Source: Octopus vulgaris (taxonomy: Eukaryota). Taken from it: DNA of 64,000 nt. The stretch spans positions 12,214,001-12,278,000 of the forward strand of contig OX597828.1 in assembly GCA_951406725.2 (NCBI GenBank), in the 5' to 3' direction. This document shows positions 4,341-62,492 of this stretch, one piece after another. The position numbers and the translations under genes were made by a program. How positions within the stretch are numbered: the first letter of the stretch is position 1; each line of letters starts with the position of its first letter. The notes beneath the pieces were generated by a model that saw only the letters and a list, made by a program, of their open reading frames with translations, searched no databases and was not told the origin of the DNA.

Positions 4341-4462
4341 ATCTCCGAAGAGGCGTTGGGATATTTTGTGTCTCATTTATAACTACATATTAACCTATCA
4401 CACATAGCTAATATGAGCAAAATGAGACACCCATATCTGCATGGCCGAAACAGCTGTAAGAT
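4341..4462 (+). ncRNA. Type I hammerhead-like motif (variant core CCGAAGA, long stem II)
   Basis: ATCT-CCGAAGA-GGC...GCC-GAAAC-AGCT-GTA-AGAT. The internal pair GTGTCTCATTT/AAATGAGACAC extends stem II. Confidence 0.6.
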
Positions 4463-4954
4463 GTAGTTTATAGTTATATTTATTTTTATTTATATTCTCT
4501 TATACATATTGTACTTATTGTATCATATTACTCCTTCATGTACACTGTTTTGTTCTATATTATTATGTTTGACCTTAATGTTCATATGTTGTGGTTTAAT
4601 AAATTATGTGATTAGGTATTATCCGGTAGTTGATAATTGATTTGGATGTATTTCTCCATTTTCTTATTTTGTATTACTAATTTGTGGTAAAACATTTTAC
4701 CTTTGCCCATATAATACAGTAAATGAATTAATTGCATCGCAATTCTTAACATTTATGTATTAACTTTGTTGGGTACTTCACTAGCAGTATATTGGATATA
4801 TGTTATCCCATAGAGGGTTGCATTTACAACCACTATCTCAATTTGTATATATATATATATATATATATATATATTGGAAATATGTAGTTTATTATAAATA
4901 TGTAAATTATATAAATCTTCTACAATGATTTGTTTTTATGCGGTCTTTACCTAT

Positions 4955-5400
4955 GTAGCACCTTAGGCAAGTGTCTTCTACTGGATTGATCAAAGCCTCG
5001 TCAGGGGATTTGGTAGAGGGAAACTGAAAGAAGCCCATCGAATAGCTATCTAGAGAGAAAGACAGATATATAGACAGACAAGCAGAGAGACAGACAGTCA
5101 GGCAGATAGATAGATAGATAGATAGATAGATAGATAGATAGATAGATAGATAGATAGATAGATAGATAGATAGCTCTGTGTGTCTGTGCGTGGGTGTCAT
5201 TGTGTCCGTATTTGTCTGTGCTTGACTACCGTTGTTAGTGTGTTTGTGTCCCCGTAAATTAGCGGTTCGGCAAAAGATATCGAGAGAACACGTTCCAGAC
5301 TTAAGAAAAAGTACTGTGGTTAATTCATTCGACTAAATTCCAGAAGGTGGTACCCCAGCATGGCCGCTGTCTAATGATTGACAACAAGTAAAGAATAAAA
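4955..5400 (+). mobile_element. SINE family A, 5'-truncated, internal (GATA)n
   Basis: Body and tail match the copies at 7270 and 60989. Confidence 0.75.
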
Positions 5401-5543
5401 GATATATATATATTTTCTCCTTCTTGAAACACATTGAAGCAGAAAATAATTTTTTTGTTCTTTATACACAGCTCAGTTTCCGAAAGAATCAACATGAAAA
5501 TTTGAACGTTTATTCCACTGACATAAACATGAGTTGCAGGCTG

Positions 5544-5989
5544 GGATCTTTTCGGTTTGAACGGTAGTTTTTAAACATAATTTCCACGTAACTAAACACT
5601 TTTAAACTTCGTATACTGGTAGAATGTGTTTATAAAAGATCTTTTTGTCTTGGCTTTATTGAGAAAATTCTATCGTTTGCATGATATTTATTGTTTTTTT
5701 TTCTTCAATTTCTGCAATTTCAACCAATTAATGACCGTCTACTGAGGTGAAAACATTCTGTGCCGTATGAAAATATCCCTCGTTTAAGAAACAGATTGGG
5801 TTTATTTACATTTCTGAAGAAAAAAAGATACCCTTCCCCCACCCCTAACCCTAAACCTAACTAACCCTAACTCTAACCCAAACCCTGAAATAGATTGAAA
5901 TGCAATAGATCGATCCTAGGGTCATAATTATGGGTGACAATTTCATATGATACCGCTAGAAAAAACTGCCGTTCAAACCGAAAAGATCC
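5544..5989. mobile_element. MITE with GGATCTTTTCGGTTTGAACGG TIRs, 8-bp TSD and internal (CCCTAA)n, copy 1
   Basis: TIRs at both ends; flanks GCAGGCTG/GTAGGCTG. Confidence 0.9.
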
Positions 5990-6717
5990 GTAGGCTGAGT
6001 TTTAAGGTTACTAAAGGGGGATTGCTTTTTTTTTTTTTTTTAATTATTTTTCTGACCCTCAATTTTTAACCCATACTCCGGGTGTAATTAAGGGAAATAA
6101 CAGTGTAATATATTCATAATAGAGTTACGTCCCTGTGAAACCGTAACTAGACTTCAGCCCGTGTTAAGTTTATCAAAATTAGGCCACAGAAACTGAAGTC
6201 AACGTTGCCTGACACAACACAGATGCCAAGTACGCAAGGGGAATAAGGAAGCTGAGTTGACAACTAAACAACACAAAGTTGGATACATAACTACAGACTC
6301 GAACTTCTGCACATAGAAGAACTACTTGAGGTATTTTTAAAAATAAGAACATATAAGAAATAAGAACTAGTGAAATGTCAGAGTAAACAACCAAAACTTG
6401 CTCAATAGATACGAGTTGATATTTTTGTTTTTTATCCAGAAAAGTAAATAACTAAGTTCTAGGAATATAGAAGTGGATGCTATTCGTAACACCACTTACA
6501 CCAGAATTTAAAATTCCCAGCTTGGAATAAGTAATAAGCAACGTTTAATAATAGTAATGAGTAATAATCGTTAAGCATATGTAGAAATGTAGACAAACCG
6601 GCCTGGATTTTTTTTTGTTACGATCTACCACGTTCCGAGTTCAAACGATGTTAGGATCAACTTGTTTTCGTTTTTCTTTTTCTTATGTTGTTATAGTATG
6701 TATTCCTTCAGTTTTAT

Positions 6718-7134
6718 GGATCTTTTCGGTTTGAACGGCAGTTTTTTCTAGCGGTGTTATATGAAATTGTCACCCATAATCATGACCCTAGTATCGATCT
6801 ATTGCATTTCAATCTGTTTTAGGGTTAGGGTTAGCGGTGGGGGAAGGGTAACTTTTTTCTTCACAAATGTAAATAAACCCAATCTGTTTCTTAAACGAGG
6901 GACATATTCATACGGCACAGAATATTTTTTACCTCAATAGACGGTCATTGATTGGTTGAAATTGCAGAAATTGAAGAAAAAATACAACAAATATCTTACA
7001 AACTCTAGAATTTTCTCAATAAAGCCAAGAGAAAAAGATGTTTTATAAACACATTCTACCAGTATAGGAAGTTTAAAAGTGTTTAGTTACGTGGAAATTA
7101 TTTTTAAAAACTGCCGTTCAAACCGAAAAGATCC
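6718..7134. mobile_element. Same MITE, copy 2 (opposite orientation)
   Basis: TIRs; internal TTAGGG repeats; degenerate TSD AGTTTTAT/TGTTTGAT. Confidence 0.9.
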
Positions 7135-59520: not shown

Positions 59521-60988
59521 TATGTATATATATATATATATATATATATATATATATACACACACACACACGCACACACACATATATATATATATATACA
59601 TATATATATATTCATATATATATATATATGTGTGTGTGTGTGTGTGTGTGTGTGTGTCCGTGTGTGTGTGTTAGATGCATGTATATAAAGATATAAGCAC
59701 GCATGTGTGCACGCTGAAACATACGTATATTTCAAGCCTGCAATGTAAACAGTCGGCAATATCATTTCTGTTTACTTTTCCCATACATATATTACTACCA
59801 TTACTTGTTTTTGATATTAATATAATCCGGAACACTACATCCTCTTCTATTCCCTTTATTTGCCATATTTATTTTCATTGTAGACATTCTTTATGTTGTT
59901 ATTATTTACTCGCATATTTCTACGTATTTTTTTCCGCCACATGTCTTACTTTTCAAACGTCACATATTATTATTCTGTTTACCTATTCCTTACCACATAA
60001 TCTTACTCGTTTTACTTGCATCATTCTTTGGATATTTATCTATCTTTCAATACATACATGCATACATACATACATACATGGATACATACATACATACATA
60101 CATACATGCACACTCACATATACACTAATGTAATAATATAATCCTGGCCTTGTGCCAGAATTTTACACCCAAAGTATATATATATATATATATATGAGTA
60201 TATGTGTGTGTACATACATATATACATACATATATATGTATGTATATATATCTCTTTCTCTCTCTATATATATATATGTATATATATATATACATACATA
60301 TATCTCTATCTATTTGCATGTGTGTGTATTTGTTTGTGTATGTATATATATATATATATATATATATATATATATATATATATACATATATATATACATA
60401 CACATATATATATATACATACACACACATACAAAGAGATAGAGTTTAGGGAAAGCAGATTGAGCGTCATTCTTTATTTCATATCTCTACATTTGTTTTCA
60501 CACATCTTCACACTCGTATTACATTGGTGCAATGATATAATCAACATATTCCCTAATCGCTACCATCCATTCAAGCTGCAAGATGTGTTTCTCCTGGTGA
60601 TTATTTTGAACAATTACTTCGATAAATCCGAATGTTATTTCACTCTACACAGAATATGAAAACCCAAAGAAGTGTGCTATTTCCAACAACTTGCAGACAA
60701 CACTAAGTCCCTAGATAAAATGGCGACAAACCGAAAGTATAACGAAATGCAAAATGAAAAAATAAAAAATAAACTCACATCTGGTTAACTCTAAAATACA
60801 ATTCTATCTTCACGGTAAGATTATTAGGAAGAAAAAGTTAAACGAAACAAGAATGAAATTAAGCGTTTAGTGATAATAATTTTATTAAATGATAAAGTTT
60901 GACCATTTCCTTGCTTGTCCACTATCTTCTTGAAAGGGATACATGTGTATATGTATGCTGTATGCATGTATGCATGTAAGTAAACATG

Positions 60989-61380
60989 TAGGAGTGGCTG
61001 TGTGGTAAGTAGCTTGCTTACCAACCACATGGTATCGGATTCAGTCCCACTGCGTGGCACCTTGGGCAAGTGTCTTCTACTATAGCCTCGGGCCGACCAA
61101 AGATTTGTGAGTGGATTTTGTAGACGGCAACTGAAAGAAGCCCGTCGTATATATGTATTTATATGTGTGTATGTGTATCTGTTTGTGTTTGTCCCCCTAG
61201 CAACGCTTGACAACCGATGCTGGTGTGTTTACTTAGCGATTAGGGAAAAGAAACCGATAGAATAAGTACTAGACTTACAAAGAATAAGACCTGGGGTCGA
61301 TTTGCTCGACTAAAGGCGGTGCTCCAGCATGGCCACAGTCAAATAACTGAAACAAGTAAAAGTGTAAAAGAGTAAAAGAG
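60989..61380 (+). mobile_element. SINE family A, intact (shows the empty LINE target site)
   Basis: GGAGTGGCTGTGTGGTAAGTAGCTTGCTTACCAACCACATGG... through to the tail. Confidence 0.9.
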
Positions 61381-61389
61381 TATGTATGT

Positions 61390-61800
61390 ATGTTCTCTTT
61401 CTCTGTTTAATTTTAGAGTAAATTTTGACCGCCCTCCTACTTCGTAGCATGGGTGTGAAGCGAAGTATCTTCTTTTAACCATTATTCTTTTAAATCTTAA
61501 AATGGCCTTGCAAATTTTTATAGTCACCGACATCGTTATCATTGGTAGCGTATGAATTAAGGACTTGCATTTTCTCCCCAAGATCCCAAGTTCAGCCATA
61601 CTTTGCCCCAGACGGATTCGTATGTATCCTATTGCGCCAGTAATAATAGATGTAAAGCTAAAAGCGTATTTTGGATGCTGGATTTTCAAACACCTTATCA
61701 ATGATTCATAGATTTTCTCTTGAGCTGAAATTCCAAAAGAGAACATACCTTTCCTTTGTGGCCCACACAACGTTATCTGGCCAGTTATATTTTAATTTGG
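61390..61800 (-). mobile_element. 3' fragment of an RLE-clade (R4/Dong/NeSL-like) non-LTR retrotransposon
   Basis: PDNVVW...EKIYESLIRCLKIQHPKYAFSFTSIITGAIGY...LGI...TIKICKAILRF fits the PD..K..Y..L...GALG endonuclease tail. Confidence 0.6.
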
Positions 61801-62329
61801 TAATTGTTTTATGTATGTATATATGTATGTGTGCATGCATGTGTCATTGACTTGTACACAGGGGAAAGTTCTGAGGGAGCTTACGATTCTGTCTCAATCC
61901 GGTGTTATACATTTCATGCAATCATTCAGGCGGCAAAGCCCAAGAATGAAAAACAGTTGATTGAGAGATAATAAGGAACGCCGGTTAGATATCAGCTCAA
62001 ACAGGAAAGAACACAAGAGTTCACATGAGAGAGGGAAAGTGAGAAAGACTAATGAAAGGAAAACTCTTTTGCCTTTTACCATTTACTTGTTTCAGTCATA
62101 AGCTAGTGGCCATGGTGGGGCATCACCTTTTTGCCACAAGAATCGAGCCCAGTACTTATTTCACTTTTTAACCCTGCGACTTATTATATCGGTCAATTTT
62201 GCCGAACCGGTAAGTTACGTGGACGTAAAGAAACCAACGCCAGTTGTAAAGAGGTAGTGGTGGGCAAGCACAGTCACAAACACCATACACACACACACAC
62301 ACACACACACATATATATATACATATGAT

Positions 62330-62492
62330 AGATCGTTAGCCACTACACACATTTTTTTCTCTCCTTGTTTTTTATGTGTACCTTTCTGTAGAAGAGCGTA
62401 GGCTCGAAACCTAAAAGACTTTTTCTATTCCTGAGCGTTATACTAATACATCTGTTTGTTATGTACACCACCTGTTTTCGTAATCTTTCCCT
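62330..62492 (+). mobile_element. Hammerhead-bearing repeat (degenerate motif at 62382-62418) ending at (TA)n
   Basis: CTTT-CTGTAGA-A-GAGC-GTAG-GCTC-GAAACCTA-AAAG; homologous to 37057-37285. Confidence 0.6.

Follow-up and report, generated by a model that had tools for sequence, protein, structure and literature searches.

Eight abundant repeat families with hammerhead-shaped motifs at their 3' ends, probably spread by Penelope-like elements, in a 64-kb stretch of the Octopus vulgaris genome

A 64-kb stretch of the Octopus vulgaris genome (contig OX597828.1, positions 12,214,001 to 12,278,000), referred to below as the window, carries nine dispersed motifs with the shape of a hammerhead ribozyme, together with a tandem array that holds five more. 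The nine sites are real hammerhead-shaped sequences. They belong to eight abundant repeat families, in each of which the motif occupies the 3' end, and the families are named here after the position of their window copy (Table 1). Each of these positions marks the outer end of stem I, and the type I layout was found at every site when scored as stem I, core positions 3–9, stem II, GAAA, a short stem III, UH and stem I again. A homology scan in which the locus under study was always left out recovered exactly these nine dispersed motifs and no further one. The preliminary description of the window had listed the same nine type I motifs and, with the array, had arrived at 14 in 64 kb: both statements are confirmed.

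Canonical cores are intact at 4341 (C3 at 4345), 16724 (C3 at 16759), 44245 (C3 at 44249) and 45457 (C3 at 45501), the copies at 44686 and 45921 exhibit a covariant U3-A8 core, and core position 6 is U at 37186 and 62382. Four of the window copies are decayed or imperfect, yet the motif is kept in every family: the majority sequence of each retains the fold and restores it where the window copy has decayed. These majorities are canonical for 4341, 16724, 33196 (core CTGAWGA, stem III ACGT), 44245 and 45457 and of the U3-A8 form for 45921, with the 44686 family showing U3 and a mixed position 8 (A8 in 9, G8 in 15 and another base in 4 of 28 rows). Stem I comprises 4–6 bp in the type I topology. 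Stem III had been described as mostly palindromic, which holds for seven of the nine window copies and all eight family majorities, although the stem at 37186 is to be read as ACGT and that at 16724 as ACTC-A-GAGT. Another register at 37186 (core TTGAAGA) was rejected, as stems I and II are lost in it. Rfam returned no hammerhead match at the two sites that were run singly, nor among the best 150 of 306 rows for the window; since the Rfam models do not cover such minimal forms, this silence is no evidence against the motifs.

Table 1. Hammerhead motifs and associated features in the window
Feature	Position	Strand	Remarks
Type I hammerhead	4341..4462	+	Core CCGAAGA, long stem II, stem III ACAGCTGT; 3' pLTR of Hydra-like PLE
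GIY-YIG endonuclease C-terminal fragment	2004..2318	+	Same 5'-truncated PLE as 4341 motif
Inverted copy of 3' end of that 5'-truncated PLE	1933-2049
Hammerhead	16726..16763	-	Core CCGATGA, 2-bp stem II with GCAA loop, stem III ACTC-A-GAGT
Decayed hammerhead	33196..33239	+	Core TCGAAGA, stem III ATGT; within inverted 5' copy of tRNA-like-headed element
tRNA-like head	33085..33162	-	A- and B-box-like motifs, then (TAA)n
Hammerhead	37186..37223	-	U6 core CTGTTGA, stem III ACGT; 3' pLTR of young Neptune-like PLE
Array, 490-bp units	39039..41524	.	Four tandem units plus one inverted, five canonical hammerheads
Canonical minimal hammerhead	44245..44290	+	CTGATGA, stem III ACAATTGT; young short element (about 190-270 bp)
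Hammerhead	44686..44744	+	U3 core TTGATAA (U3-A8 in this copy), stem III ACGTACGT
Hammerhead	45457..45505	-	Core CCGATGA, this copy with a damaged stem II, stem III ACAGCTGT
Hammerhead	45921..45961	-	U3-A8 core TTGACAA, stem III ACCGGT; pLTR of very young two-ORF Neptune-like PLE
Decayed U6-family copy	62382..62417	+	Older A7 subfamily, CTGTAGA, stem III broken (ACCT)
PLE stands for Penelope-like element, pLTR for pseudo-long terminal repeat and ORF for open reading frame.

In order to characterise the families, DNA searches were performed for each site across the 2.80-Gb genome (227 contigs), with 40 candidates scored and 25–30 loci kept per site. Every site proved to be multi-copy, each search returning 523–3,789 first-look candidates, which are lower bounds. 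The motifs at 37186 and 62382 belong to one family, and the others share no common flanks in a self-comparison, so that the several unrelated families described earlier amount to eight. Downstream of the motif, (TA)5 or longer runs are found at a family-specific fixed distance in seven of the eight families (116–119 nt in 25/25 loci of the 45921 family; 158–159 nt in 21/25 loci of the 37186 family), and copies of the short 16724 family end in (TA)n. A systematic 1-Mb sample of the genome was assembled from 100 stretches of 10 kb at even spacing; (TA)5 or longer lies within 250 nt downstream of 19 of its 25 motifs, compared to 18% of random positions. The proximity to (TA)n that had been claimed for most motifs is thus upheld, with the exception of the 33196 family. 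Inverted partners are frequent among the family copies, and two classes of 3' ends, with and without a tail, occur in the 4341, 16724, 44245, 45457 and 33196 families: both traits have been described for Penelope-like elements (PLEs; PMC8557442, PMC11167929).

The association with Penelope elements had been proposed for the motifs in general. On the basis of their coding frames three families are shown to be PLEs, two of them Neptune-like (37186 and 45921) and one Hydra-like (4341): a frame with a reverse transcriptase (RT) and, at its C terminus, a GIY-YIG domain lies upstream of the motif in these three of eight, with full pLTR-ORF-pLTR units in two families and an ORF link in the third. For the 37186 family, locus L386 is a 4.3-kb unit encoding an RT (DKG, YIDD), a CX4CxxC linker and GIY-YIG, with one frame break in this copy, and its frame is flanked by direct repeats (93.5%) that each hold a U6 motif. 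For the 45921 family, locus L387 exhibits frames of 480 and 776 aa between 99.7% identical direct repeats, each with the motif; here too RT, CX4CxxC and GIY-YIG are present, and the frame is nearest to RT/GIY-YIG clusters in the Atlas (score 0.98). The 3' end of this element is 100% identical in 40/40 scored copies, and it has probably been active very recently. The two loci share with Neptune PLEs the DKG RT, the CX4CxxC linker, the C-terminal GIY-YIG, the pLTRs and the microsatellite bias, but differ in their cores, which carry U6 in the first lineage and U3-A8 in the second, the assignment being made by motifs alone. L387 (1098-7510; G000:C3:68152600 onward) is an apparently intact two-frame Neptune-like PLE.

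The Hydra-like family is represented in the window itself, where the end of the PLE frame at 2004-2318 lies 2 kb upstream of the 4341 motif. The same motif lies downstream of a Hydra-type frame in L388 and downstream of a GIY-YIG frame in L311, L328 and L329, whilst L389 exhibits a 955-aa open frame with the marks of the Hydra clade (DKT, RWR, CxCX5C, CxxC, CxH), which is followed at a distance of about 2 kb by a related motif with a long stem. With described Hydra PLEs, L389 and the window fragment share DKT, RW(R), the CxCX5C linker and the terminal CxxC and CxH, as well as the hammerhead and insertion into (TA)n; the octopus elements are longer (the 955-aa frame and about 2 kb of 3' region, compared to less than 3 kb) and abundant (PMC8557442). 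Hydra-like PLEs are numerous in the genome at large, with open frames of up to 960 aa (e.g. L389 614-3478), and a second RT fragment is present in the window at 33376-33744 (-).

The core observation is the known occurrence of minimal hammerheads in PLEs (PMC4209133, PMC8557442), at an unusually high load. As in the metazoan elements of PMC4209133, the motifs combine a short stem I, a palindromic stem III and a location in pLTRs, they are mostly single dispersed copies from many families, and a U3-A8 core occurs; a fixed U6 lineage, families with a mismatch in place of G10.1-C11.1 and a stem II of up to 95 nt are differences to the motifs of that paper. The five remaining families are likely PLE fragments or non-autonomous passengers. 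We consider it very probable that, across all eight families, the 3'-end hammerheads were spread by PLE reverse transcriptase together with the GIY-YIG endonuclease, mostly into (TA)n.

Several observations weigh against this reading. No continuous RT/GIY-YIG frame was found for the 16724, 33196, 44245, 44686 and 45457 families in the 1.5-kb flanks of 25–30 loci each, a search that does not extend to longer parents. The claimed Penelope association is borne out overall, with ORFs demonstrated in three of the eight families. Frames in L012 and L062 were not accepted as parents of 44245 and 44686, since (TA)n and other insertions intervene. Pfam named none of the seven frames tested, and PLE identity hence rests on motifs, layout and the Atlas match; clades were assigned by the motifs given in PMC8557442 and not by a tree of reference elements. 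Within the motifs themselves, the G10.1-C11.1 pair closing stem II, which is usual among published minimal motifs, is present at 4341, 33196, 37186 and 62382 and replaced by a 1x1 mismatch at 16724, 44245, 44686, 45457 and 45921. In addition, the intended dimer of the ACGT stems lies 9–13 kcal/mol above the dimer minimum in folding.

The intended dimer is the minimum, or lies within 2.6 kcal/mol of it, in the array and in the four motifs with 8-nt palindromes, whereas it is not favoured for stems of 4, 6 and 9 nt; the array stem III can also form within a monomer. From folding, dimeric cleavage is predicted to be plausible where the palindrome has 8 nt and disfavoured for the 4-nt ACGT stems. 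No pile-up of 5' ends at the predicted cut was detected in six families, in which the loci were partly chosen by the motif and hence biased against such ends; this agrees with PMC11167929, in which catalytic mutants still insert normally in vitro. We propose that PLE proteins would copy from the 3' end by target priming and so generate mostly truncated and inverted copies, with most genomic copies expected to be 3' ends that lack the 5' part. When a transcript contains two motifs, in tandem or inverted, these would pair via their palindromic stem III, and slow cleavage could follow. Cleavage is probably dispensable for insertion, so that structure (protein binding or RNA pairing) is likely to be as much a reason for keeping the fold as cutting is. 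The role of hammerheads in Penelope elements is described as unsettled (PMC8557442), with cleavage dispensable in vitro (PMC11167929), and the missing clustering of 5' ends together with the inserting mutants of the latter paper leads us to favour slow or conditional cleavage combined with a structural role.

The family at 37186 and 62382 lacks the conserved A6 of the hammerhead core: exact copies number 15,730 with U6, 372 with C6 and 180 with A6, compared to 106 for a control change of U4 to A. Set against this control, the non-U6 copies look like decay after insertion. At position 7 all four bases occur and mark subfamilies. A tree with rough support was computed from 76 3' ends after masking of positions 6 and 7 and removal of most of the young copies that are nearly identical. 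In it the subfamilies form a ladder in which all are U6 and A6 copies are scattered, with an A6 sister family on one side of a 100/100 branch. An A6 master as main source of the U6 family was rejected: A6 accounts for 1.1% of all copies, a share close to that of the control (0.7%), and the scattered placement of A6 copies in the tree (13 changes) also counters it. Three older A6 copies (L336-338) form a group with support and may represent a minor side lineage. In the other families A6 predominates: non-A6 cores with 8-nt stems number 5,820 compared to a control of 4,361, with a narrower gap than for the corresponding canonical pattern (24,007 matches, see below). Smaller families with other changes at position 6 recur genome-wide, namely G6 with a ACAGCTGT-type stem and U6 with a different stem II.

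Judged from its sequences, the U6 lineage has maintained the fold whilst a base of the catalytic core was changed, and it has been very successful. One explanation is that U6 is an active core variant, tolerated or compensated, whose dimer still cleaves. For this speaks that, within the 36-nt motif, variation of at least 5% is confined to positions 7 and 17 and absent at position 6 (contigs of four sequencing runs labelled as four organisms, the fourth run being shallow), that sequencing depth peaks over the motif, and that stem I has been compensatorily swapped (GTTT/AAAC in the U6 family, CTTT/AAAG in the A6 sister family). A natural A6C variant, in which cleavage persists at a low level or in Mn2+, points the same way (PMC3088659, PMC7151607). 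Against it, changes at position 6 lower activity strongly in these papers, the dimer with a 4-bp stem III is not favoured in folding, and conservation of the fold is equally expected of a protein-binding site. An active U6 core is a serious possibility, to which we would give somewhat less than an even chance. The explanation that we prefer, a fold serving structure as well as cutting, would account for the continued spread of the lineage. The U6 lineage and its A6 sister family provide a natural matched pair with which cutting and fold could be tested as the selected trait.

The 33196 family is organised differently, with a 75-nt tRNA-like head followed by (TAA)n and a 3' unit of roughly 170 nt that contains the canonical ACGT hammerhead. 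When scored against the A- and B-box consensus, 23 of 35 distinct heads exhibit the A-box motif and 24 the B-box motif. ARAGORN called no tRNA in 24 loci and Rfam gave no tRNA match for the head, a silence that would be expected of a drifted head. Amongst loci picked by a generic pattern alone, the head lies upstream in 18 of 27 units and an inverted piece is present in 22 of 27 (7/12 for each in the 1-Mb sample; both units of an inverted pair are counted). Two classes of 3' end, separated by about 25 nt, can be distinguished (20 and 19 of 82 copies at the respective peaks), the tail was found at one end only in all eight inverted insertions with both ends identified (13 loci looked at), and none of 24 tails is followed by (TA)n. 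The one-sided tail and the inverted 5' copy constitute a PLE insertion signature; a PLE partner with the same 3' end was not present among the loci examined. With the Schistosoma short interspersed elements (SINEs) SM-alpha and Sj-alpha (PMC6765202) the family shares a non-coding nature, an RNA polymerase III (Pol III)-type head and a type I hammerhead. Those elements are largely tandem (PMC6765202), whereas the octopus family is dispersed and differs from them by its minimal stem III (ACGT), by the (TAA)n in its interior and by ends that are inverted and tailed as in PLEs. Exact 35-nt matches to the family number 2,155, and its density of 11 per Mb in the sample corresponds to about 30,000 copies genome-wide. 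A Pol III SINE with a borrowed PLE-type 3' end is the likely identity of the 33196 family, and Penelope enzymes are likely to copy it. In the window copy another repeat (32501-33085) is inserted into the (TAA)n; a repeat of about 585 bp is found three times in the window beside or inside (TAA)n, at 41-622, 30601-31228 and 32501-33085.

Minimal type I hammerheads of metazoan PLEs are reportedly the subject of Lunse et al. 2017, and Ohshima and Okada are said to have described three octopus tRNA-derived SINE families in 1994, one of which may correspond to the 33196 family, likewise a tRNA-derived short repeat. The literature searched, with partial coverage, contains no description of octopus PLE hammerheads (Lunse et al. 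2017, Repbase, Dfam and SINEBase may list the motifs), of a natural A6U core, of a PLE-mobilised tRNA SINE (which Repbase, Dfam or SINEBase may list) or of a hammerhead or PLE link for octopus tRNA-derived SINEs. That two undescribed systems are present, namely a U6 PLE lineage of tens of thousands of copies, still spreading, with A6U fixed long ago and the rest of the motif under selection, and a tRNA-headed SINE of roughly 30,000 copies that is mobilised by Penelope and not by LINE enzymes, has in our estimation a chance close to even, if just short of it. If true, a functional core with U6 would be new, or else the hammerheads of PLEs would be kept for a task other than cutting (such as RT loading or RNA pairing). 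A SINE with PLE marks would reveal a third enzyme system that moves Pol III elements, and the minimal cis-signal of PLEs would be delimited to about 170 nt.

For the ORF-less 16724, 44245, 44686 and 45457 families and the array, an alternative origin is that of non-LTR (long terminal repeat) retrozymes, in which hammerhead-cut RNA circles would rely on PLE enzymes only for integration. The array family is dispersed as tandem units that are 97–100% identical, for which there are precedents (PMC7229834; bioRxiv 10.64898/2026.07.22.740005), and copies of 44245 and 16724 begin uniformly at a 5' position a short way upstream of the motif. However, in the loci read the dispersed families are monomers or inverted pairs and not head-to-tail, and the 5' ends do not map to the cut; we therefore regard a retrozyme origin as unlikely and retain copying by PLE enzymes. 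The 490-bp array family itself is very young and resembles non-LTR retrozymes; its units, both tandem and inverted, are spread over many contigs, with 1,476 candidates. A second retrozyme-like tandem array with four U3-A8 motifs about 360 bp apart is found at G000:C1:8134351-8135463.

In order to compare motif density with chance, a strict descriptor (stem I of at least 4 Watson-Crick pairs, stem II of at least 3), which misses 16724, 45457, 33196 and 62382, was applied to the window: 10 matches were obtained (5 dispersed and 5 in the array), compared to 2 in 20 local dinucleotide shuffles (mean 0.1), and the 1-Mb sample gave 25 compared to 1 and 0 in two shuffles. Density is thus far lower in shuffled sequence, as the preliminary description required. 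Across the whole genome, exact patterns exceed their reversed controls for the canonical core with an ACGT stem (35,037 compared to 2,436), the canonical core with an 8-nt stem (24,007 compared to 3,180), the U3-A8 core with a 6-nt stem (24,139 compared to 5,755) and the U6 family pattern (15,730 compared to 0). Amongst the first 100 8-nt matches listed, counted by hand, the four free bases are perfectly palindromic in 74, with about 7 expected, and 13 more pair with one G-T. Chance matches in AT-rich, microsatellite-rich DNA, in whose favour stand reversed controls of 7–24% of the pattern counts and some doubtful matches from a relaxed scan (32883, 781 and 47275, which like the 40098-type were dropped as all of them failed in the strict scan and in the comparison with families), have practically no probability as an explanation in view of the shuffles and of the fold restored in family majorities where the window copy has decayed.

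The pattern excesses sum to roughly 87,000 (with small overlap of the first two patterns, and other stem lengths uncounted), with which the about 70,000 extrapolated from 25 per Mb agrees. Including decayed copies, homology to a library of 22 multi-member clusters identifies 71 motifs in the 1-Mb sample and thus about 200,000 genome-wide, a lower bound given this library. We estimate the genome load at about 70,000–90,000 intact and about 200,000 recognisable motifs; for comparison, PMC4209133 gives about 2,000–9,000 per genome, with different descriptors, against about 70,000–200,000 here. The very large load suggested earlier is borne out by these counts, but scaling up from 14 per 64 kb overstates it, as the window (9 dispersed and 5 array motifs) is 2–3 times denser than the genome average of 71 per Mb by homology. 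At about one motif per 14 kb, the load is of relevance to the annotation of repeats and to read-through transcripts of such elements.

Beyond these families, the window contains a broken non-LTR retrotransposon with endonuclease-like and RT-like frames at 9440-12375 (+). A repeat of about 445 bp is present five times (5544-5990, 6715-7134, 24509-24954, 48936-49355 and 57310-57744), some copies having CCCTAA runs, and a tRNA-like match (49464-49536, Rfam 43.9 bits) lies near one of them. Finally, an open stretch of 173 aa with ordinary composition at 29124-29645 (+) is possibly a host exon.

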